A program made the position numbers and the translations under genes. Positions 283 to 40,731 of a stretch of 64,000 nt of DNA are shown here, piece by piece. Origin of the DNA: Naegleria gruberi. Taxonomy: Eukaryota. The number at the start of each line of letters is the position of its first letter. Within the stretch, counting starts at the first letter, position 1. The notes under the pieces are model-generated. The model was not told where the DNA came from, searched no databases, and saw only the letters and a program-made list of their open reading frames with translations. The stretch lies in assembly GCA_000004985.1 (NCBI GenBank), contig GG738881.1. One strand, given 5' to 3'.

Positions 283-2811
283 TCATTTCAAATAGCAAGC
301 ATCAAGATAGGTTGTACAAATTCGTTTCTGAAACAATTCTTCACTGAATTCACAGCAAAATCCACTTTTCATGGCAATTTCTTCTTTCATTTCAACTAGT
401 GGCGAAAGTAATTGTTTTAGAAGGGCACATATTCCACATTCGTTTCGTTTCAGTGCTTCCAGAACCATTTCCAGATCCATAGTGATGCTAGCTTGATGAG
501 TGATAAAGAATGAACATGAGAGTCCATTTCGTATAGCTTCTAAAATACAGAGATTGTCCTGGATTAGGTCATTTGAGGCGAAATAAATCGAATCTGCCTT
601 ATTTCTAATGGCTGCAAGAACGACATCCCTATCATTTCGCATTTCAACTGATAGAAACTTTAACAAGTCACCTCTCAAACTAACAACTATCAAGGCAATT
701 TCTTTACAATTTCTCACCCTTTCGGATGCTAATTCAATGACAGTTGGATCGGTCATGACAGCCAATTTCATTATTTCCAAATCATCTTTCAATATGGAGC
801 ATGTATGCTTCAAAGGAATGATAGATTGCTTAACAGCTTCCAAAATAAATTCCCTGTCATTCTTGAATTTGCGTTTCAAATCGTCTGGAATGGAGAAGAA
901 ATTGGTTTTCAAACCCGCCAATATAATTTCCTTGTCTGATCTTAAATTTTCATTAAGGAAATGGAATGACAACACTTCTGGATCGTTTTTGACTGATTCT
1001 AATACAATTTGTCTGTCTTGTTGTAATTTTGGAGAGGCAAATTCAAGGGAGCATCCACGATTTCTGACAGCTGTCAAGACTATTTCTCTATCTTGAACCA
1101 AATCTTCACACACAAATTCCAGTGCATCTCCCTCACTTTCCACAGCTTTCAAAACAACCTCTCTATCATTCCAAAAATCAGGGAAATATTCCAAATAATA
1201 TCCATTATACGAAACTGTTTCCAATGCAAAATCTCTATCCTCAATCAACATGGTTTCAATTTCACTGAAAATCTCAATCGGACATTCCTTAATTGCTTCC
1301 AACATGAACGATCGACTATTCCTCAAAAATAATGAAGCATCTTCCAGACATTGAGGATACAACCTTAATATTTTTAACATGAAAATTCTGTCATTCTTTT
1401 GTTTCATTGTAATGAGATGAAAGAATTGATAATTCGATTCGACTATCTGATATACGAAATCATTGTCTGTTTCCCAGGATTTGTTCCAAATTCTGGAAAT
1501 GAGTTGTTTGGAATTGAATGGTGAACTGTCAATTAGACAACTGATAATTTTGAAAATTTGTAAAACTAAATCTTGGTGTTGTTTCACATTGGTTTCGTCT
1601 AATAAATTATTGATGCATGAAAATAAAGTTGCTGAAAGCCCAGAGTTTGCTAATTTCGCTCCTTCTGCATGGGAAACAACCTTCAAAGTATGTGAAATTA
1701 TTTCTGTGAGGATTGACTTGTCATTTTTCAAATCTTTCGAAAGCCATTCCAAAATTTCGAATAACTTATTAAGCAATGATATTGCCGATTGTTCATTTGT
1801 AATTCTATTACATTCCAATCCGTTTTGTCTAATAGATTCAATAACAATCTCAATATCATTCACACATTCGTCCAATCTAAGAACAATCGAATAAGCTCCT
1901 CGTTTCACACATGTCAATGCCATCTTTCTCCATGAATAATTTTCATTACAATTATTGGCTATCTGCTTCATAGCTAACAAGATAATTTCTCTATCCTTAC
2001 TAAATTGAGAATCAATTACATATTCCATTACTCTTCCATTTTCTCTCACTGCATCCATTACAAAATTTCTATCACGACATAATTTCTCCTTTACCAATTT
2101 AAAAACTGTTGCATTATTCGAAAGGGCTTGAAGGGCAACTTGTCGATCGTATTGATAGTGATTTGAGAGAAGAGGTAAAATCAGTCCATTGTTTCGAACA
2201 CATTCGAATATAAACTCTCTATTCTTCATCAATTCCTTATTTACAAAACTAATAGCCTTTTCATTATTCTTGATAGATTCCAAAACAACATTTCGATCAT
2301 CATTGAAATTCTTCAACTCCTTCAATGCTAATCCATCCTTTCGTACAATTTGCAAGACGAAACTCTTCTTATGAATTTGATAAAGATTTCTCAAGGTTGC
2401 AACTGTTTGCCACGAATCAGGTTTACAAATTCTGAAAACTTTCTCCACAATTTCAAAATCATTTTCCAATAATTGTGGATGAATATTCTCCCACAATCGA
2501 TCTGCATCATTATTCGAATGTTTGTTCCGATCATGGAAATCATCAAGGAATTGCATGATATATTGTTTGTCCTTCGAGTATTCGATCGGAATGAAGTTTA
2601 GAATAGTAAATCGATTGATCAACCATTTGTATTTTCCCTTGCTTTGATTTTCGAATCGTTTCTTCAAATTCGAATACAAATAATGATCATTGTGATGATG
2701 CTGACTGAGAAAATCATAAAGGATGAGAACTACCAAATCATGATTGCATTGGTGCATTGTATTTGAACTTGGGAGTGATGCAAATACACTTTCTAATATT
2801 TTATTCGACAT
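283..2811 (-). CDS. DUF4116 tandem-repeat protein, 842 aa
   Basis: Single 842-aa ORF with real ATG at 2811. About 12 tandem copies of a ~30-aa repeat (DREIVLxAVxxNGxxLEFAS / NDREFILEAVKQ...), which is the DUF4116 signature. Confidence 0.65.
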   Translation of the reverse strand: MSNKILESVFASLPSSNTMHQCNHDLVVLILYDFLSQHHHNDHYLYSNLKKRFENQSKGKYKWLINRFTILNFIPIEYSKDKQYIMQFLDDFHDRNKHSNNDADRLWENIHPQLLENDFEIVEKVFRICKPDSWQTVATLRNLYQIHKKSFVLQIVRKDGLALKELKNFNDDRNVVLESIKNNEKAISFVNKELMKNREFIFECVRNNGLILPLLSNHYQYDRQVALQALSNNATVFKLVKEKLCRDRNFVMDAVRENGRVMEYVIDSQFSKDREIILLAMKQIANNCNENYSWRKMALTCVKRGAYSIVLRLDECVNDIEIVIESIRQNGLECNRITNEQSAISLLNKLFEILEWLSKDLKNDKSILTEIISHTLKVVSHAEGAKLANSGLSATLFSCINNLLDETNVKQHQDLVLQIFKIISCLIDSSPFNSKQLISRIWNKSWETDNDFVYQIVESNYQFFHLITMKQKNDRIFMLKILRLYPQCLEDASLFLRNSRSFMLEAIKECPIEIFSEIETMLIEDRDFALETVSYNGYYLEYFPDFWNDREVVLKAVESEGDALEFVCEDLVQDREIVLTAVRNRGCSLEFASPKLQQDRQIVLESVKNDPEVLSFHFLNENLRSDKEIILAGLKTNFFSIPDDLKRKFKNDREFILEAVKQSIIPLKHTCSILKDDLEIMKLAVMTDPTVIELASERVRNCKEIALIVVSLRGDLLKFLSVEMRNDRDVVLAAIRNKADSIYFASNDLIQDNLCILEAIRNGLSCSFFITHQASITMDLEMVLEALKRNECGICALLKQLLSPLVEMKEEIAMKSGFCCEFSEELFQKRICTTYLDACYLK

Positions 2812-2881
2812 AGTTAACCAATTATTTCGACCACCAAGAAAGGGGAACTAACAAGACTTCTATTCAGAAATATCAGAAACT

Positions 2882-5800
2882 TTATTCCAAAATCTTGAAT
2901 TGGAAACTATAATCCACAGGACTAAACTTGATATGGACATTGGCATAGGCCATTGTGAGTGATAAATCTTTTCTAATTTCTGCATCCCTTGGCAGCAAGT
3001 TAATCACCCAATTCATAACAGTTTCCTTATTATCTCCAAATAATCCTAAATGAGTTGCGAATATTGAAGGCAAAACAAGAACCTTAGTTTGTGGATTGAA
3101 ATTTGAATCATGAAGGAGAACGCCAGTTGCTTGTTGCCTCAATTGAGTTTTAACAAGCTCTGCATTATTGGGATAATAAATTCGAATAGGTGGTGAGGAG
3201 AATGAGCAATTACTGATAGCCAAACAATTCAATGGATCCTTTTGATAGACATCCAAAAGTAGTTTGTGTTTCTCTGTATTGGAAATGTTTCTTGAACTTG
3301 TCAATAGACATTGAATATCATCCAAAGAGAGTGGAATATTTCCAACACAATAAATTGGTTCCTTCATAAATCTTCTACGACTTGAAGTGTTGAGCATTGG
3401 ATAGAATCCTCCACGAATAAAACCATGCAACAACATGACGTGGTACAAGTTGATTAAAAAGACGGTAATCAAGTGTTTTTTGGTTTTCAAATGATCTAAA
3501 TCAATAGATTCCAACTTGTAGGTCAATTGGGTAAATTGTTCAAGTTTTTCCTCTTGATCTGCTAAAATAATAAATTCCTTTCCGAGTTTCAATTGTTTTC
3601 CCCATCCCATTCGTTCTTGACCATCTCCAGTTGTTTGTGTAATCCAATCAGAGGCTCTATAAATTTCCACAATCTTTTCCAATAACAGAACAGTCAATTC
3701 TACTGCTTGTTGAGCAGATAGAGTAGAAAGTGAGAGAATGTTGGAGTGAGTTTCAGAGAGGACTGATGTTGTTGATGGTGATTGTTCAACAACAGCAAAT
3801 ACATCATCTTCAAATAATTTGTCAGGTGTTTGTGGAATGCTAGTGGAAGCTGAAAGTGAATTGTCTGACGTGTCAACTGGTGAAGTAACAACTGGTAGAT
3901 CGATGGCTGTTTGTGGTGGACTTCCTGATGAGGTACTGGCAGCATCTTCATCATCTTCCTCAATTGGAATGGCCTCAACTCTGGTTGAATTGAAAACAGA
4001 CATGGAACGATAGTGAGCCGATTTCCCTTCAAACATGTTTGCTCCCTCATCTTGTTCAACTTCTTCAATGTACTGAGTTTCAACTCCCTCGACAACTGAA
4101 TCTAGTGGTTTGTTGAGCATGACACTCAATCCTCTTGTCTTTCTGAATTGAATTTCAGAATCACGTCTCTTTCTGAATTCTTCTTGTTGTTTCTTCAACT
4201 CCAATTGCACCTTGAACATTTGATCTAATTGTTCCCAATTCAATGTTTGCATATAATCGACAGCAATTTGAAGAGTGACCAGAGAATAACCCATAGGTCC
4301 CATCATGAGAGATTCGTGAACGAAATCTTCTAAAATCTTCAAATGACAATACAAATCTGGAATGGCTGCCTTGATCATGACAAAGATGAAAATTGGCATC
4401 AATGCATCAGCAGAAACTTCCTTTGGTTTTCCATAGTAATTTTTCACACAATCCACAATGGCCTTTGAGGTATTCATCAAAATTTTCATTTTACCATCAA
4501 TTAAACTATTGCTAGTTGAAATTTGAGAAAGAGTCTGAATGGCAAGGGCGTAATTTTCATCAGCTGTCTTGCCATTTCCTTCCAAACAATATTCATCTGC
4601 AATTTCCAAGTGTCTTGGTGTACAATCCTTCAATTCCGCATACTTTTGATTGACGAATGATGATTTCTCTGCTAGCTCTCTCCTGTACAATTCAAAAACG
4701 ATTGGGAAAATCTTATCGAAAAAGACATAGTCTACACATTGAGCAAAGAGTGGCTCCATCTCGTTCGGAACCACCTTCAAATTAACGTTATAATTCACAG
4801 CAGGTGTGATAATAATCTTTTGAACTTGTCTTGACATGACTTTGTACATTTCATCAAAGAATGTTGCAATCAGTGATTTGGCTCTTGAAGTAGCCACAAT
4901 CTTCTCCTCAGATGTTAACTTGTCAAAATATTCCAAAGAATAAGCTTGTAAGAACATGTCTGACTGTTGTGTAAGAACTCTATTAAAGAGACTGCCAGGA
5001 TTCTGACATTTGCTGAACAAGTGTCTGAAAATAATTTGTTCCTGTTCATCAACACTTTGACATTTGGCAATATCTGAATAAAAATCAGATTCAGAACCTT
5101 GCAACTCGATAATATCAGAAAACTTGATCAAAGAACTTTCCACAAATTCTTTCAAAGTTTTCAATTTTTTACCCATCACTGATTCAAATTCCAAAATATC
5201 AGATGAATAGTCGATGGCATCGCTGTCCTTTGCAAATGTTAAATAATAGACCATCTCCTTCTTGATAGCTCTATGCTCGAAAATTTCCTTGTGATCAGTG
5301 CACAGACATGGGAATGCCTTATTGATATCGATGGCAGCACAGGAAACAGGTTTCTTCAGAACTTCAGACAAGATTCGAGAAATTTCACGGAAACTAGCTT
5401 TTGTACCATGAGCTACAAAGTTCTTGATCATTTGTTCCGAGTCAACCTTGATTGTTTTCATCAGGTGAAGAATAAAATCAATGACATCATCTCCATCACA
5501 CCATTCCAATCTTTCATTCAGAGTGTCTATGGTAGAAGAGGTTGGAAGGGACATTGAGGAATAGGTTTGAAGTTCAGAGCCAGACAAGGTTGCTAGAGTT
5601 TGATACAACCAACCAAATTCTATAAATGTATAAGCTACAGGGCACTTTCTCGATAAATAAATGGAAACTTGGGTGAGGAAATCCTGACATATTCTCTTCG
5701 TTGCAGAATCGTACAACAAAAAGATGTGTTTCAGTTTGGTAGATCTGGCTGCATTGTCCATAATCTTCTTAAAAGCATCCAAATCAAACCACTTATTAAG

Positions 5801-33400: not shown

Positions 33401-34093
33401 ATGTTTAAACATTCCCTCCTTGCAATCCTTGCATTACTTTGCTTTACACATGTCTTTTCAACTGTGGCCACCTTCAATTTTCTATTCGAAAGACATGAAT
33501 CCATGAAGAGATCAACACTTCAAACAACAACCACTACTACATGCTGCCAACCAAATGTCTTCTCCCTAAAAGGCATCTTAAATCAAGTTGCCATTGGTAA
33601 AAACGCAACTTTACAACCACTCACCGGAACCATTCAATTATTCGCAGATTACAATCTTGGAAGAATTAGACAAGATGCAACATTCTCTGCCAATGGAATG
33701 AACTCGTCCATTTCTAGTTATGCATTCAAACTTTCTGAAAATCTTGCTGTCAAGTATGATATTCGTGGCGAGGGCAATTGTGCATGTCATCAGATTTCGT
33801 CCACTCATGATTTTCAGCCAATGTGTGTCCTTTCGTCCAATCAAATAAGAAAGGCAAAAATTGGAAAATATAATGCAAAGAATGTTATCTATAATGTAAT
33901 GGGAATGAATGCTAATATTTGGGTTTTTTATGAGAATCCAGACGAAAGTGAAAAGTGTTGGATTTTGAGTTCGTATTTCCCAGATTCGTTTTCTCTTCAG
34001 GAAATTGTGTATTATGATCAAGTTGAGAAGGTTGACCAAAATGTTTTTAAGGTTCCTAGTTATTGTCCAAAGATTGAACAATGTTCTGATTGA
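33401..34093 (+). CDS. Secreted ependymin-related protein (EPDR family), 230 aa
   Basis: Signal peptide MFKHSLLAILALLCFTHVFS. Conserved Cys pattern and motifs versus ependymin: CCQP...G, QDAT, NCAC, and C-terminal VPSYCP (ependymin VPPAYC). Confidence 0.55.
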   Translation: MFKHSLLAILALLCFTHVFSTVATFNFLFERHESMKRSTLQTTTTTTCCQPNVFSLKGILNQVAIGKNATLQPLTGTIQLFADYNLGRIRQDATFSANGMNSSISSYAFKLSENLAVKYDIRGEGNCACHQISSTHDFQPMCVLSSNQIRKAKIGKYNAKNVIYNVMGMNANIWVFYENPDESEKCWILSSYFPDSFSLQEIVYYDQVEKVDQNVFKVPSYCPKIEQCSD

Positions 34094-34125
34094 GAATATT
34101 TCAGTTTCGAATAAAAATTTATTGC

Positions 34126-34603
34126 TCAATTGAAATTATCCCAAAATTCCATTGTTGATTTTTCCTTAAATACAAAAGGAATTTCCAAAAATCCTCTAAT
34201 CATTTTCAATAAATCAATTCCAACCAAAAGTCCGATCATTCCCGCTAATTCCCCAAGTAATCCCTCAATTGAGTTTGTGTAAACTTCCTCAATTTGAGTT
34301 GTACTGAGAGAGTTGTAAGTTACTGAAATAGTTAGTGAAGTTTCGTCTGCATTATACGTTCTGAGAACTGTCTTTTCAGAATTCCATTTTGTAGAATTGA
34401 GATTTGGATTATCAATTGTTGGTTTTAATCGAGTGGTGATGACTTTGGTCAACATGAAAAAGTTATCTAATGAGGGAAGGGCATAATTAGTTTCGGATAA
34501 TAAATCAGGAGTGGTTCCTTGCTCATGGAATGAAACAATGAATCCCATTTTGACTTTTTTAGAACTGATTTCAGTTGGAGTTGGAGCATTCAATCCGAAA
34601 AAA
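34126..34603 (-). CDS. DEG/ENaC-like paralog 1, exon 3: extracellular domain and TM2
   Basis: Acceptor GAAACAG|T (69-nt intron 34604-34672); an alternative acceptor would make an 18-nt intron. Pre-TM2/TM2 GLLGELAGMIGLLVGIDLLKMIRGFLEIP. Stop at 34126-34128. Confidence 0.5.
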
Positions 34604-34672
34604 CTGTTTCGAATAATAGACAAGAAATCAAAAGAAATTGACATGAAATTCAAACTATTGTATATTACTTAC

Positions 34673-34903
34673 AATGTTCTAATTCCATTATATCCAATCA
34701 ATGACGATTTCATTAAATTAGCACTCGAACTATCCGAAATATTATTAAAAACATAACAATGATACTTGTTTCCTCCCTGTTCAATTTCCTTATAATAAAC
34801 CTGGTCAGAATTGTAATTATTCGAAGATTGAAAATCAACAGCTCCATCAAATCGAAGGGCACAAGCATTACAATCAGAAGGACCTGCATTCCAATTACAA
34901 ACT
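34673..34903 (-). CDS. DEG/ENaC-like paralog 1, exon 2: Cys-rich extracellular region
   Basis: Acceptor CGAATAG|AG reconstitutes PAVTVCNWN, the post-TM1 signature of ENaC/ASIC channels (FPAVTICxLN). Intron 34904-34954 (51 nt). Donor ACATT|GTAAGT. Confidence 0.6.
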
Positions 34904-34954
34904 CTATTCGAATCAGTTTCCAATAATTGTAAGAAAACAAATGAGCCAACTTAC

Positions 34955-35280
34955 GTAACTGCTGGCAGGGTAAGGGAAGTTGCTGGAATCCAACTCATGG
35001 TTGTGGTTGGCTTGGACATGGCCTCAACATAACTCATCGATTGTCTAATGGTGTAATAGACCATGAAACTCAACATGATGAACCAGCCAATCATGGTCAG
35101 GATGTGATACCATTTGAAGGGGAATTTCCAGCCACATAGCTCAACATGTTGGATTGGCTCATCTGGGTTGTCTTTGATTGGACTGACATCTTGTTTGTTG
35201 ATGGTGGCTCGTTCCTTATTTTCGGTTGATGTTGGGTTGGTTTCTTGCATTTCAATGGGAGTCACCGAATTGGTGGCCAT
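34955..35280 (-). CDS. DEG/ENaC-like channel paralog 1, exon 1: N-terminus and TM1
   Basis: ATG at 35280. WKFPFKWYHILTMIGWFIMLSFMVYYTIRQ (TM1), then LPAVT. Donor GTTAC|GTAAGT, phase 2. Confidence 0.6.
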
Positions 35281-35449
35281 TTTTTTATGATCTTTAGTAT
35301 AACAGTTTGGCGGTAATTTACTACAATTTTTGATTCTTTCTTACTTGAGCTAGTACATCATTCGGGATGGCTTTTTATTAACGAAAGTCTTCAAACTGAT
35401 ACAGTTACTTCAAAACACAAAATATCAAGGCATATGTAAATTCAAAGAA

Positions 35450-36662
35450 TTAATTGAAATTATCCCACAACTCCATAGTTGACTTTTCTCTAAATATCAA
35501 AGGTATCTCAAGCAAACCTCTTATAGTCTTTAAAATATCTATTCCCATAAGCAATCCCAGCATGCCTATTTGAAAAAAGTGAGATGCTCATAATACAATG
35601 TTTGAGAAGTAACATACCTGCAAGTTCTCCCAATAATCCTTCAATTGAAACTGTCAATACTTCTTCAATATGATTAACATTTAGGGTGCCATAAGTAACA
35701 GCGACTGTTAGGGATGTATTACTACTAACTGTTGACATTAGAACAGTGTTTTTGGAAGCCCATTCAGTAGTTTCCAGATTTTGATGTTCAACTGAAGGAT
35801 TTAACCTTTTAGTAACTTGTTTTGTTAGGATATAAAAGTTATCCAATCCAGGTTGGGCATAGTTGGTTTCAGAAAGAATGTTTGGAGTTGTTCCAGGCTC
35901 ATGGAATGATACTGTAAAACCCATTCTTTTGATATTGGCCTTGATTTCCTTTTCGTTTGGTTCTCTCAGGGAAAAATCGCTAACATATGAGCTTCTACTA
36001 ACAGAATAATCGTCAATTACTTACAACCTTCGCATTCCAGAATAACCAGTAAGCCATGATTTGAATACTTTGGTGCTATCTGTGATATTATTAAACACAT
36101 AGCAGTGATAATTTCTTCCACCTTGAACTATTTCTTTGTAATAATATTGATCATCAGTATACGGGGTGATCGATTCTTGACCGTCTTCCCTAGTCATGGT
36201 AAATTGAATTTTACTATCTTTATGACCTACCTTTGAAAATCCAAACACCCACTATAATAGATCCAACATGCATCACAATCAGAGGGACCTGCATTCCAAT
36301 TGCATACTCTAATTTTGAATTCCTATATTCAATTTCAATTGGAATTTAACTTACGTGATGGCTGGTAAGGCTAGTTTTAAAGTTGATTCCCAAGACATCG
36401 AAGTGGTTGGCTTTCCCAATGCCTCACTATAACTCATCGCCTGCCTAATAATATAATAAATCATAAATCCAATCATGATAACCCATCCAATCATGGTCAG
36501 TAGATGAAACCACTTGAACGGAAACTTCCATCCTCCAATTTTTACACTATTTCTTCTTTCCTCTTCGTCTTCGGCTGTTGTTGTTGGCTTCATAGAAGCT
36601 GCAGCAGAACCTCCTGCTTCCTTCTCTTGCATTTCAATTGGGCTAACGGAGGTTTTACTCAT
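35450..36662 (-). CDS. DEG/ENaC-like channel paralog 2, multi-exon (at least 4-5 exons); gene span given
   Basis: ATG at 36662. Exon 1 runs 36355-36662 (TM1 WKFPFKWFHLLTMIGWVIMIGFMIYYIIRQ, donor GTAAGT). Further exons fall around 36021-36300, with a candidate 41-nt intron GTAGGT..CTAG or a frameshift. Exon 35609-35924. Last exon 35450-35556 follows a 52-nt intron at 35557-35608 that splits GELAG|M in TM2. Paralog 1 lacks that intron. Confidence 0.5.
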
Positions 36663-36843
36663 TTTCACTTTTTTTTTAAGATTGAAGTGAACCTTAATAA
36701 CAGATCTTAAGCGTTATTTTTTTTGGCGCCAAAATACAAGTTCATCCAATTACGAAAAAAATATAACAACAAACTAACAAAACCATCATTTGATTTTGTG
36801 AGGAGAGAACTAAGTAGCAGATCGGAAGATAGTTGTTTGAAAA

Positions 36844-37803
36844 ATGATGGCAGCACCTGAAAAACAATTTAATTGGAGAATTATAAAACATGTACTAGTA
36901 CTCTTGTTTTGGTTCATCAATACTGGTGTTTTTGCATATTATATTTATTCACAGGCAGTTTCATTTATCAAGACTGAACAATCTCCTGTGACTTCAACTT
37001 CCTATTCATATGAAGATCCATTGAACTATCCGACTATAACAATTTGTGATTGGAGTAGAGAATCATCATTTGCGGCTACTTGTCCTGTTTGTACATTTGA
37101 ATACATTTCGTGTTATTGGTATAATTATGCAGATGACACAAATAATCCAGTGGCTTGCCCTCTAACATTTACCTTTTTTAAGGATGGTCAATCTTGCTTT
37201 GAGGCAAATGCAGATATAAGCAAATTGCTGACTGCCAAGAAAAAAGGATATCTAGGATCAATCAACATGTTATTTAGAATTCCTATCAATTATACTGATC
37301 CACTTCTTAGTGCTTACAGACTTGGAGCTTCTATCACTTTTAGAGAGCCAGGAACTCTACTGGGAAGCATATTTGCTGAAACTAATTATGCCATTCCAGG
37401 TCGATATAATTTATTTTCAATCAAAAAGGTGGTCTACGAGAAATTGCCTAAACCTCAGACCACCTCTATTGATGAGATTCCTTTACCAACAACAGATTCT
37501 TCAACAAAAACAATTTCATACGAGGCAACCTATTCAGCCCTCAAACGAGTGAAAACTGCAGACATGACAGACAATGATTATCTGGAGCAAATTGAGGTGG
37601 CATTCACATATGAAGAGTTAAAGACAACAACAATTACAGAAATTCAACAAAAAGATGGTTGGAGTTTGTTTGGAGAAGTTGCTGGAATGGCTGGGTTATT
37701 GCTTGGATTGGATATTTTGAAATCGTTTAGACTTTTCCTAATGTTTCCTCGTCTTTTCTTCAGACAAACCTCACTTGGAAAAATTTGGGAAGCTATGAAT
37801 TAA
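36844..37803 (+). CDS. DEG/ENaC-like channel paralog 3, intronless, 319 aa
   Basis: TM1 VLVLLFWFINTGVFAYYIY; post-TM1 YPTITICDW (ENaC FPAVTIC); Cys-rich ectodomain; TM2 FGEVAGMAGLLLGLDILKSF. Divergently oriented to paralog 2. Confidence 0.65.
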   Translation: MMAAPEKQFNWRIIKHVLVLLFWFINTGVFAYYIYSQAVSFIKTEQSPVTSTSYSYEDPLNYPTITICDWSRESSFAATCPVCTFEYISCYWYNYADDTNNPVACPLTFTFFKDGQSCFEANADISKLLTAKKKGYLGSINMLFRIPINYTDPLLSAYRLGASITFREPGTLLGSIFAETNYAIPGRYNLFSIKKVVYEKLPKPQTTSIDEIPLPTTDSSTKTISYEATYSALKRVKTADMTDNDYLEQIEVAFTYEELKTTTITEIQQKDGWSLFGEVAGMAGLLLGLDILKSFRLFLMFPRLFFRQTSLGKIWEAMN

Positions 37804-37905
37804 CAACAGACTAGGACAAATAATAATCGATTATGATATTTTTGTAAATATAAAGATTTTAAACATTGCAACCTAAAAATATTATCGTAATCATCCTGAA
37901 AAAAA

Positions 37906-39327
37906 ATGCCAACTGTCAAACTTGGAGTGACACTGTGCCTACTTGTTCTTCTTCAACTACTATTCATCACAACAACAAAGGCAGACATACCAGTACACTG
38001 CGTTCATGATGACATTGCCAACAATGAGTGGAAATTATTCATCACACCATCCATCTACTCCGTTCCAAATAGAAATTCTAAAATTGCCTTCAGAAAACAA
38101 TTTGTTCCATTAAATTGTACAAGATTTGACAAGGAAGATTTGACAATTTCTAGGGTATTACGTGTCTATCTTGAATATCCAAATATTGTCCGTGATAGTT
38201 TGGATAATTCTAGAATTGGAACTTGGACTATGGTTTATGATCAGGGATTTGAAATTACTTTAAAGGATGATTTTAGTGAGATTAGTTTATTTGCATTCAG
38301 TTCATTTGAAAGAATGAAGAATGATACTCAACTTATCAAGTCAAAGTGTCATGAAACTTTTGTAGGAAATTATCGTAAAACTTCGAGAGATGGAAAGAAT
38401 TCACTTGGATGTTATTATGCTGAAAAGACTAAACCATCTGCAAATGATGTTAAAATTTCATTACCTGTCAATACTCTATTGTACAAGTATTTTGATCCAA
38501 AGAATAATGGAAAAGGATTAAACGTTAATAAGAAGGATTCAGATGATGATTTTGAAAGTGAATCTGATTTGGATTTGAGAATTTTGAGAACTATCAAACC
38601 ATCAAATACCAAATTCAAGAACGACAAGACCTTAATTGATTGGATTAATACTCAATCTGATGATTTGGGTTGGTCTGCTCAAGCTTATCCACAATTTGAA
38701 GAAATGACAGAAGCTGATCTTATCAATCTCTCAGGTGGATGGAAATCACTCTTCTTGGGCCATTGGAACAAATGGAGACCAATTGGTTTGGATGATGCAG
38801 AATCATTTGAGAGCACTTCTGATAACTTTGCCATTGCCAATCAAGAATTATTGAACCAAGTTGAAAAATTACCAAAGAACTTTGACTGGAGTAATGTTGA
38901 TGGAGAAAATTACGTTCCAGATGTAAAAAATCAGATGGCGTGCGGATCTTGCTACGCTTTTGCTGCAGTCACAGCTATTGAATCTCGTATTAGAATTCAA
39001 AGCAGAAATAATGTCAGAGAACCACTTGCAGTTCAAGATATTGTCTCCTGTAGTCCATACGCTCAAAAGTGTCATGGTGGTATTCCATATGCTGTAGGTC
39101 GTCATTTACGTGATTTTAATCTCGTTCCAGAATCATGCTTCCCTTACAAGGGTTCAGAAAATGTTGCCTGTTCATCCAAGTGTAAGAATCCAGAATATAT
39201 TGTCAAGGTCACAAAGTATAGATATGTCTCTGATTATTATGGAGGTTCAAATTATGCCAACATGATGAAGGAAATTTATGAACATGGTCCAATTTCTGCC
39301 AGTTATTTGATTTATCCAGACTTTAAG
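37906..39327 (+). CDS. Cathepsin C (dipeptidyl peptidase I), exon 1: signal peptide, exclusion domain, propeptide, catalytic Cys
   Basis: Signal peptide. Exclusion-domain start DIPVHCVHDD (human DTPANCTYLD). Catalytic QMACGSCYAFAAVTAIESRIRIQ (cathepsin C: [22 protein letters not shown]). Donor AAG|GTAGGT. Confidence 0.8.
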
Positions 39328-39375
39328 GTAGGTTATTTGAATATTATTTAAAGGTTTCATTAATTTTTTATCTAG

Positions 39376-39543
39376 TACTACTCGAAAGGTATTTACAAGC
39401 ATTCTGGTAAGGGTTATCCAATGAAAACAGATAGAATCAATCGTGAAATGAATGGATGGGAACCAACTACTCACTCAGTTGTTATTACTGGTTGGGGAGA
39501 AGATCCAAAAACTGGTGAAAAGTATTGGAATGTTTTGAACTCT
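39376..39543 (+). CDS. Cathepsin C, exon 2
   Basis: Acceptor TTATCTAG|T gives YYSKGIYKHSG...HSVVITGWG (the His-containing segment). Donor TCT|GTAAGT. Confidence 0.75.
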
Positions 39544-39601
39544 GTAAGTAGTTGATTCAATAATTTTCATTCTCATTCAATTAATTCTAAAAAACCAAAA
39601 G

Positions 39602-39721
39602 TGGTCTGAAAGCTGGGGTGAGAATGGTAGATTCCGTATCAAACGTGGAAATGATGAATGTGCTATTGAAGCTGAAGGAGTTGCCTTCTATCCAGAAGTA
39701 ATCTTTATGAATAAATATTAA
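39602..39721 (+). CDS. Cathepsin C, exon 3
   Basis: Acceptor CCAAAAG|T gives [23 protein letters not shown] (the Asn-containing segment). Stop at 39719-39721. Confidence 0.75.
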
Positions 39722-39736
39722 CAACTCTGGAGAGAT

Positions 39737-40036
39737 TTACTTCTTTTGAGATTTGGCTTGTTGATCTACCAGTTGTCTGCTTCGTAAATCAGCTTGTCTG
39801 ATTGGTTCTGGAATTTTATGGATACAAGTCATGGTCACAACTTTGATGGCAGTATCGAGACATACTTTGTGGCCAATACTAACGTACAATGGTCTGATGG
39901 ATTTATCAGTTGGTTGCAGAACTACTCCTAATACTTGACCACTAGTTTCTCCAATTAGATCTGCATAATCTCCCTTTTTCTTTAATTTTTCTGCCACTAG
40001 CTCTTTAACTCCTTCTCTTGTTAATCCATCAACGTA
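39737..40036 (-). CDS. Endonuclease V, exon 3
   Basis: Acceptor ACATAG|TAC gives YVDGLTREGVKELV...YVSIGHKVCLDTA. Stop at 39737-39739. Intron 40037-40086. Confidence 0.7.
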   Translation of the reverse strand, partial: YVDGLTREGVKELVAEKLKKKGDYADLIGETSGQVLGVVLQPTDKSIRPLYVSIGHKVCLDTAIKVVTMTCIHKIPEPIRQADLRSRQLVDQQAKSQKK

Positions 40037-40086
40037 CTATGTTATCATTGATTAATACTATTAATGTAATTTTACAAAATACATAC

Positions 40087-40273
40087 TAGTAATTTTTTGG
40101 CAACTCCAATTGTTGGAATATTCGCTTCAACACCCAAATGAGCTGCTAATCCAAATCCTCTCTGATGCAAAATTCCATTTCCATCCACTAGAATGATTTG
40201 TGGTTTAGGTTGTGTTGAATTTAACATTTCCTCAATCATGATTTTCAAATGTGGAACTTCTCTAAATGCAAGA
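40087..40273 (-). CDS. Endonuclease V, exon 2
   Basis: Acceptor AAATTAG|T gives PG-F-LAFREVPHL and ILVDGNGILHQRGFGLAAHLGVEANIPTIGVAKKLL (EndoV Mg-binding and PYIPG/HPRG motifs). Donor CTA|GTATGT. Intron 40274-40315. Confidence 0.7.
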
Positions 40274-40315
40274 CTAATTTCCATGTAAATAATTTCAATA
40301 CAACAGTAAACCTAC

Positions 40316-40731
40316 AATCCTGGAATGTATGGATGAGCCATTCTCACCTTTTCATACTTTTCATATACAACTTTCAAATCAGGAAATGACAAGACAATCA
40401 AACTTGCAATAGCATCCCTCGGATCAGTCTTATCAAAACTTATATCCACTCCTCCAACAAACTTTAATGTAGAATCCAAATCATTCGGATCAAAATCAAT
40501 CTCATCACGAATACTCAATTTTTCCTTCAATTCATCCTGTTGAATAATCCACTCTGATTTAATTCTCTCCAATTCTTCCTCAGAAATTCCTGAATTAATA
40601 TTCATTGCCATTTCATCGACTATTACTGGTTCACCACTATCTAATGATGTTGTTGCTACTGATGCGGAGGAATCAACAGCATAGGAAGAAGAATCCTGAT
40701 GCGTAGTATCTGTAGAGTTGCTTTGCGACAT
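40316..40731 (-). CDS. Endonuclease V (deoxyinosine 3' endonuclease), exon 1
   Basis: ATG at 40731. GGVDISF (catalytic Asp region) ...HPYIPG. Donor GGATT|GTAGGT, phase 2. Confidence 0.7.

Follow-up and report, generated by a model that had tools for sequence, protein, structure and literature searches.

The DEG/ENaC channels are commonly regarded as an invention of animals. The locus described here, at positions 34,126 to 37,803 of a 64,000-nucleotide stretch of the Naegleria gruberi assembly GCA_000004985.1 (contig GG738881.1; this whole stretch is referred to as the window), raises the question of whether three neighbouring genes of a non-metazoan eukaryote encode members of this superfamily and, if so, of what kind. 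We consider it likely that the locus is a three-gene cluster whose products belong, as subunits, to a minimal branch of the DEG/ENaC superfamily (Pfam ASC), in which the transmembrane (TM) helices and the core of the ectodomain are retained and the larger extracellular subdomains of the animal channels are missing.

The three genes, termed copies 1, 2 and 3 (Table 1), are real and intact. An initial annotation had described them as neighbouring genes for two-TM proteins, two in tandem on the minus strand and one divergent on the plus strand, and spliced models reproduce this arrangement with proteins of 319-344 aa, whose frames all close after splicing to give intact open reading frames (ORFs). 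The short N-terminus, TM1 and TM2 that it proposed agree with exactly two hydrophobic segments in each of the three proteins, and its remark that these are unusually small for the superfamily also holds, as canonical members span 450-700 aa. Copies 1 and 2 are 59% identical, and copy 3 is 31-33% identical to either. No further copy is found in the window by tblastn, and the guanine-cytosine (GC) content of the cluster (~34-35%) equals that of the surrounding scaffold.

Homology of the three genes to the DEG/ENaC superfamily is supported. In the profile search proposed as a check, all three proteins exceed the 23.6-bit gathering cut-off of Pfam ASC (PF00858), copy 1 with 50.9 bits (E 1.6e-13), copy 2 with 53.5 bits (E 2.7e-14) and copy 3 with 32.2 bits (E 7.7e-8), values well outside what chance would give. 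The same family is matched above the cut-off by 10 of 10 aligned relatives, and no other Pfam family matches more than one of these at E <= 10. A profile of the 10 sequences aligns to chicken ASIC1 (E 3.5e-12) in three colinear stretches, which comprise TM1 and strand beta1 (FPAVTFCNLN), the segment GKCYTFN running on towards the palm, and the final strands of the palm together with TM2. A 53-sequence profile reaches ASIC1 at E 3.9e-21, ASIC5 at 1.4e-20, FaNaC at 8.8e-20 and ENaC gamma at 1.2e-16. Among the 53 relatives, P63 is conserved in 52, T66 in 42, C68 in all and N69 in 44, while C118 and N122 of the beta-ball motif CYxFN are conserved in 53 and 52, respectively. The post-TM1 motif reads PAVT^VCNWN in copy 1, PAIT^VCNWN in copy 2 (a caret marks a splice junction) and YPTITICDW in copy 3; as read initially (PAVTVCNWN / YPTITICDW), it is present and aligns to FPAVTFCNLN of ASIC1, and the segment GELAGM(I/L)GLL(V/M)GID(L/I)LK is likewise found as claimed.

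The predicted fold of copy 3 is consistent with this assignment. The AlphaFold model built with 53 sequences has a predicted local distance difference test score (pLDDT) of 88.2 and a predicted template-modelling score (pTM) of 0.80, and it supersedes a 9-sequence model with a pLDDT of 54.8. In the later model, two helices (residues 11-46 and 272-306) flank a beta-rich ectodomain (47-271) made up of some ten strands plus three short helices, each 4-6 residues long, and a palm, a beta-ball core and TM helices of the ASIC/ENaC type are recognizable. The structure comparison called for by the initial annotation, performed with Foldseek, matches the model to ASIC1 at E 2e-14 with a query template-modelling score (TM-score) of 0.60, and to the proton-activated chloride channel PAC/TMEM206 (ASOR) at E ~1e-11 with a target-normalised TM-score of 0.62-0.66.

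With ASIC, ENaC and FaNaC, the Naegleria proteins have in common the two-TM topology, the FPAVTxCN strand, the CYxFN motif and the Gly-rich pre-TM2 segment; they differ in size (~320-345 aa against 450-700 aa for ASIC/ENaC), in their non-metazoan host and in lacking the finger helices, the thumb and the HG motif. In the 10-sequence profile alignment, the finger region of ASIC1 (~98-190) is squeezed into ~43 profile positions and the thumb (~296-350) has no counterpart; judged from its short loops, the knuckle of the Naegleria model also looks reduced. An HG motif within the 45 residues preceding TM1 is absent in 52 of the 53 relatives, the lone case lying in a low-complexity run, and the ASC match of copy 3 begins at profile position 22. 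ASIC1 has 14 conserved ectodomain cysteines. The three copies contain 4, 5 and 6 cysteines in ~225 residues, and the "Cys-rich ectodomain" ascribed to them was thus an overstatement. As modelled, copies 1-3 represent a minimal form, consisting of TM1, a palm and beta-ball core, and TM2, with no ASIC finger or thumb. The C-termini read ..EFWDNFN in copy 1 (34129-34146), ..ELWDNFN in copy 2 (35453-35470) and ..KIWEAMN in copy 3 (37783-37800), and ..FNG terminates 11 of the 53 relatives; the conservation of this end hints at a sorting or interaction motif.

The most distinctive feature of the family lies at the position of the selectivity filter. The ASIC1 residues G-A-S (G443-A444-S445) correspond in the alignment to G-L-D in copy 3 and to G-I-D in the other two copies. 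Across the 53 relatives, the pattern is G (51), then [LIVMF], D (39), two variable positions and K (39), and Ser occupies the Asp position in two only; a few distant relatives carry G-S-S or G-x-G at the filter. Thus, whereas ASIC and ENaC have G-A-S or (G/S)-x-S, the Naegleria family has G-[ILVM]-D followed by x-x-K. Gly is conserved at positions 0, -4 and -7 in 46-51 and at -11 in 42 of the 53 sequences. The glycine at -4 (46 of 53), which is common to DEG/ENaC and the Naegleria proteins, corresponds to the ENaC amiloride-site position.

The gene models rest in part on the recognition of very short introns. None, two and at least four had been counted initially in copy 3, copy 1 and copy 2, and the spliced models fix these numbers at 0, 2 and 4. 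All six introns are GT..AG, with donors GTAAGT, GTAGGT or GTATGT, ends (T/C)AG and 22-31% GC. The intron reported inside PAVT^VC of copy 1 is present in phase 2, and the first intron of copy 2 matches it in both position and phase, each interrupting the Thr codon of PA(V/I)T^VC. The 52-nt intron said to split GELAG^M in copy 2 was also recovered, in phase 1, and its removal rebuilds GELAG^MLGLLMGIDILK, corresponding to the copy 1 sequence GELAGM(L/I)GLL. The 41-nt element of copy 2, which had been left as either an intron or a frameshift, is a proper GTAGGT...AG intron; unspliced, it leads to an immediate TAG, and its removal restores the frame into YYKEIVQGG..HCYVFNN, matching copy 1. Introns of this size are normal in this genome, since the neighbouring cathepsin C gene has annotated introns of 48 nt, with the same GTAGGT donor as copy 2 intron 2, and of 58 nt. 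An introner or repeat origin was considered and rejected, as a blastn-short search of the six introns against the window returned only the introns themselves and chance 11-20-mers.

Comparison with a second strain shows that copies 1 and 3 are under purifying selection. The ENA metagenome ERZ929261 contains an N. gruberi-like strain that is 98.1% identical to the window, and its contigs cover positions 33808-35345 and ~36718-40400, so that the comparison concerns these two copies. The exons of copy 1 differ at 11 of 1035 nt, with 9 synonymous and 2 non-synonymous codon changes, and copy 3 displays 16 synonymous and 2 non-synonymous codon differences. Intron 1 of copy 1 carries 3 substitutions in 51 nt, against ~1% in the exons, and intron 2 has a 12-nt insertion and 5 substitutions in the other strain, where it measures 81 nt and keeps GT..AG; taken together, the two introns have 8 substitutions in 120 nt, a divergence ~6 times that of the exons. 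The differences between the strains are concentrated in introns and synonymous sites, and the comparison independently supports the intron calls of copy 1.

The cluster belongs to a wider family of small proteins. An exhaustive profile search retrieved 901 cluster representatives at E <= 1e-3, of which 146 reach E <= 1e-10 and 65 reach E <= 1e-30. Among these, the top ~120 are single-stretch matches in proteins of ~280-400 aa; many environmental clusters of this size range have retained just the palm and beta-ball core, and proteins of canonical length (450-560 aa, matching in three stretches) appear only from ~E 1e-14. Three further N. gruberi paralogues lie outside the locus (NAEGRDRAFT_64420, 81362 and 66414), and the family in this organism comprises at least six deeply diverged paralogues; other members come from TARA Oceans, soil and tailings metagenomes. 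One paralogue, XP_002672040.1 (NAEGRDRAFT_81362; P0060 in our set), is a 1563-aa model with a complete mini-ASC unit at its C-terminus and a long N-terminal part that has no similarity to mini-ASC, and the model gives the impression of having fused several adjacent genes. There are also distant branches of the family: two members from Logan assemblies (P0119 and P0124) are Asn-rich and of low complexity and have the canonical G-S-S at the filter, and a cluster of 23 members from TARA Oceans, ENA and JGI (P0084) has G-V-G at this position and occurs in small size fractions of TARA Oceans.

A similar gene pair occurs in a related organism. A 13-kb contig of the JGI metagenome 3300002220 (37.7% GC) bears two mini-ASC genes head to head and 75 bp apart (1739-3738). 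The first is of the copy-1/2 type, with 338 aa and 38% identity to copies 1 and 2, and the second (P0051) is copy-3-like, with 302 aa; neither contains an intron. Other copy-1/2-type genes are also single ORFs, namely P0036 and the ENA version of NAEGRDRAFT_64420 (a 521-aa ORF), and it is therefore the intron-bearing state that needs explaining. In a neighbour-joining tree, copies 1 and 2 are sisters (bootstrap 100), and together with 64420, 81362, P0036 and the 338-aa gene they form a group at 79% with copy 3 outside it. Orthology of copy 3 with the copy-3-like P0051 and P0054 reached a bootstrap of only 33%, and the common head-to-head layout is accordingly taken as a suggestion only. Only the duplication of copies 1 and 2 is comparatively young, given their 59% identity and full bootstrap, whereas the split of copy 3 from the two is ancient, in view of the 31-33% identity. 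On our reading, the head-to-head pair is old, and the copy-1/2 gene had gained two introns before a tandem duplication in the N. gruberi lineage, after which copy 2 gained, or copy 1 lost, two introns.

This history differs from that proposed initially, in which the differing intron contents were put down either to recent turnover of introns at this locus or to copy 3 having arisen by retroposition. That copy 3 lacks introns and lies beside intron-bearing paralogues would suit a retrogene that arose recently from copy 1 or copy 2; nevertheless, copy 3 is too distant from both and lies outside their 79% group, it has neither a poly(A) tract nor a flanking repeat and is separated from copy 2 by a 181-bp head-to-head spacer, and intronless genes are found both in the similar pair of the related organism and in the copy-1/2-type P0036 and ENA 64420. 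Nor do the introns duplicate sequence found elsewhere in the window. We regard such a recent origin as very unlikely. A different doubt concerns copy 2, which could be a decaying duplicate that yields no functional protein, its 41-nt element being a frameshifting insertion and its 52-nt element a disruption of TM2. Both elements are unique to copy 2, and 41 nt is very short for an intron; yet both have good GT(A/R)(G/T)GT...YAG boundaries, their excision restores the frame exactly into the conserved YYKEIxQGG..HCYVFNN and GELAG^MLGLLMGIDILK, and the adjoining cathepsin C introns of 48 and 58 nt, one of them with the same GTAGGT donor, are of comparable length. The five exons are all open despite 40% protein divergence from copy 1, and the ASC score of copy 2 (53.5 bits) is the highest of the three. 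At the level of sequence, the intact five-exon ORF and this score argue against decay, for which we see little chance.

Whether the family as a whole has been placed correctly can also be questioned, as the proteins might be relatives of PAC/TMEM206 rather than of DEG/ENaC; they would then be small trimeric two-TM channels with a palm and beta-ball ectodomain, and their conserved TM2 lysine might make them anion-selective. The anion selectivity of PAC depends on a TM2 lysine. The Naegleria proteins conserve a Lys in TM2 and are compact two-TM subunits with a small beta-rich ectodomain; PAC has a similar size (~350 aa), two TM helices and an equally compact ectodomain, and 221 of 259 PAC residues align to the Naegleria model. 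Moreover, PAC was the top match of the first, low-confidence model (pLDDT 54.8), and with the 53-sequence profile the E-values for PAC chains run from 7.9e-11 to 1e-5. However, the E-values for ASIC/ENaC are 5-10 orders of magnitude better, and the match to PAC extends over TM1 and the linker only, stopping short of the PAVTxCN motif; with a TM1-beta1 profile it weakens to ~1e-3, a value that ASIC1 also gives over this stretch, and the link to PAC is therefore kept as a lead only. In addition, ASC is the only Pfam family that recurs among the 10 relatives, and FPAVTxCN, CYxFN and the Gly-rich pre-TM2 segment of DEG/ENaC are all present, whereas PAC lacks the PAVTxCN, CYxFN and Gly-ladder motifs that the Naegleria proteins have in common with DEG/ENaC. 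A placement with PAC is hence improbable, although a sequence link between DEG/ENaC and PAC may exist. Least probable of all is that the genes reached the assembly by lateral transfer from an animal or by contamination. The description of DEG/ENaC as usually metazoan speaks for it, and Elkhatib et al. 2023 (PMC10507113) discuss lateral transfer to explain a patchy occurrence in protists; against it stand the GC content equal to that of the scaffold, short introns typical of the host, the embedding of the cluster among N. gruberi genes on a scaffold of 379,849 bp, the recurrence of the locus in another strain with 98% identity, a genome that holds at least six deeply diverged paralogues, and nearest relatives that are protist or environmental mini forms, with animal channels appearing only from ~E 1e-14.

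Several points do weigh against a cluster of three working minimal DEG/ENaC subunits. Three canonical hallmarks are absent: the G-x-S filter, an HG motif, and the finger and thumb together with the disulfide-rich domains that belong to them; size and the target-normalised TM-score are closer to PAC (0.62-0.66) than to ASIC (0.43-0.48); and channel activity, trimer formation and selectivity are all predictions. For copy 2, neither second-strain nor RNA support was found, and its spliced model has no exact match in the public protein collection, which would also suit the decaying duplicate discussed above.

On the reading as minimal DEG/ENaC subunits, which we favour, each protein has a predicted cytosolic N-terminus and TM1, followed by the strand (F/L/Y)P(A/S)(V/I)T(I/V)CN(W) and by an ectodomain of ~225 residues that is nearly all beta and represents the palm and beta-ball core only. 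A Gly-laddered pre-TM2/TM2 segment, G-x3-G-x2-G-x3-G-[ILVM]-D-x2-K, then leads to a short C-terminal tail ending in ..W/F-x-x-F/M-N; this membrane orientation of the two-TM subunits is itself inferred. The subunits may form trimers, as in ASIC, ENaC and PAC and in all relatives of solved structure, with an ion pore presumably lined by TM2. At the constriction, a ring of Asp would take the place of the Ser of G-x-S, with Lys one helical turn below, and because of this substitution and the position of the Lys a canonical Na+-selective ENaC-like filter is improbable; a cation pore that is permeable to or blocked by divalent ions, or even PAC-like behaviour, may be envisaged. Lacking a finger, a thumb and an acidic pocket, the proteins could be gated neither through the proton sensor of ASIC nor through the peptide site of FaNaC, and gating would have to rest on the palm and wrist or on membrane stimuli. 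The 181-bp spacer between copies 2 and 3 is presumed to act as a bidirectional promoter, and this short divergent arrangement is speculated to allow co-expression and possibly hetero-oligomers of the two. The 169-bp spacer between copies 2 and 1 may have a promoter or 3' end function.

The locus itself is not new, as copies 1 and 3 are already RefSeq/UniProt entries. Spliced copy 1 equals XP_002674946.1 / EFC42202.1 / D2VLU3 (NAEGRDRAFT_69901, "predicted protein") residue for residue, and copy 3, read from its second Met (36847), equals the 318-aa XP_002674860.1 / D2VLU5 (NAEGRDRAFT_69903, "predicted protein"), to which a precomputed PF00858 match is already attached. The surprise of the finding is limited by the genes being public as "predicted proteins". 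As the exact 342-aa model of copy 2 is not in the protein collection, any public model of this gene must differ. A word-indexed search with copy 1 gave a single match, and it is no proof of absence from the database, because the 90% cluster that contains the RefSeq protein has a 109-aa ORF fragment as its representative. Studer and colleagues are said to have reported, in 2011, an ENaC/Degenerin homologue in N. gruberi; our literature search combining Naegleria with ENaC, degenerin or ASIC, or using the locus tags, found no description of these genes.

The neighbours confirm the source. The initial annotation had remarked that a DEG/ENaC cluster would be noteworthy in a non-metazoan, and the host is indeed N. 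gruberi, as copies 1 and 3 match proteins of this species and the ORF at 37906-39348 is identical in 474 of 474 residues to its cathepsin C, XP_002674861.1, on the 379,849-bp scaffold. On the other side of the cluster, an uncharacterised 230-aa ORF converges on copy 1; its hydrophobic N-terminal stretch is possibly a signal peptide. The features of the locus and the other features noted in the window are collected in Table 1.

Table 1. Features of the three-gene cluster and other features of the window (window coordinates; a caret marks the splice junction).
Feature	Position	Strand	Description
Copy 1 gene	34126..35280	minus	exons 35280-34955, 34903-34673, 34603-34126; introns of 51 and 69 nt; 344 aa
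Copy 1 intron 1	34904..34954	minus	51 nt, GTAAGT..TAG, phase 2, in PAVT^VC
Copy 1 intron 2	34604..34672	minus	69 nt, GTAAGT..CAG, phase 2 (..GIRT^FFFG..)
Spacer, tandem copies 2 and 1	35281..35449		169 bp
Copy 2 gene	35450..36662	minus	342 aa; introns of 46, 41, 45 and 52 nt
Copy 2 exons (5)	36662-36355, 36308-36231, 36189-36025, 35979-35618, 35565-35450	minus
Copy 2 intron 1	36309..36354	minus	46 nt, phase 2; position of copy 1 intron 1 (PAIT^VC)
Copy 2 intron 2	36190..36230	minus	41 nt, GTAGGT..TAG, phase 2; copy 2 only
Copy 2 intron 3	35980..36024	minus	45 nt, phase 2; position of copy 1 intron 2 (..GMRR^FDFS..)
Copy 2 intron 4	35566..35617	minus	52 nt, GTATGT..TAG, phase 1, GELAG^M, just before TM2; copy 2 only
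Head-to-head spacer, copies 2 and 3	36663..36843		181 bp
Copy 3 gene	36844..37803	plus	intronless single ORF, 319 aa
Cathepsin C (dipeptidyl peptidase 1)	37906-39721	plus	102 bp downstream of copy 3; annotated protein needs introns 39328-39375 (48 nt) and 39544-39601 (58 nt)
XP_002674859.1 (uncharacterised)	33401-34093	plus	230-aa ORF; hydrophobic N-terminus, several cysteines; 32 bp between its stop codon and that of copy 1
tRNA-Met (CAT)	13536-13607	plus	sole tRNA in the window by ARAGORN

To our knowledge, reports of DEG/ENaC outside animals are few and recent. Deg/ENaC homologues have been described in Cafeteria roenbergensis and Tunicaraptor unikontum (Elkhatib et al. 2023, PMC10507113) and in dinoflagellates (Pozdnyakov et al. 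2021, as cited in PMC10507113), and protist reports in the literature examined concern heterokonts, a filasterean relative and dinoflagellates only; the candidates of PMC10507113 are confined to holozoans, one alveolate and one stramenopile. These homologues belong, as do the Naegleria proteins, to the same superfamily in non-metazoan hosts, whereas the minimal architecture, the G-x-D..K motif and the present cluster are not described in the examined papers on protist Deg/ENaC. A BLASTp screen of Discoba with animal queries gave no candidates (PMC10507113), and the Naegleria proteins were thus evidently missed by BLASTp. What is usefully new here is how minimal the architecture is and how broad the mini family, along with the G-x-D-x-x-K motif and a weak link to PAC.

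It is conceivable, though doubtful at present, that a widespread, undescribed protist "mini" DEG/ENaC family represents the pre-metazoan ground state of the superfamily, in which case the finger and thumb would be later insertions and the family would provide the missing sequence link to PAC/TMEM206. The mini family offers a concrete model of the ancestral channel, with the finger, the thumb, the HG motif and the G-x-S filter as putative animal additions. With Asp and Lys conserved at the filter, a different permeation is to be expected, and the mini proteins may serve as a small and simple scaffold on which to study palm-driven gating.

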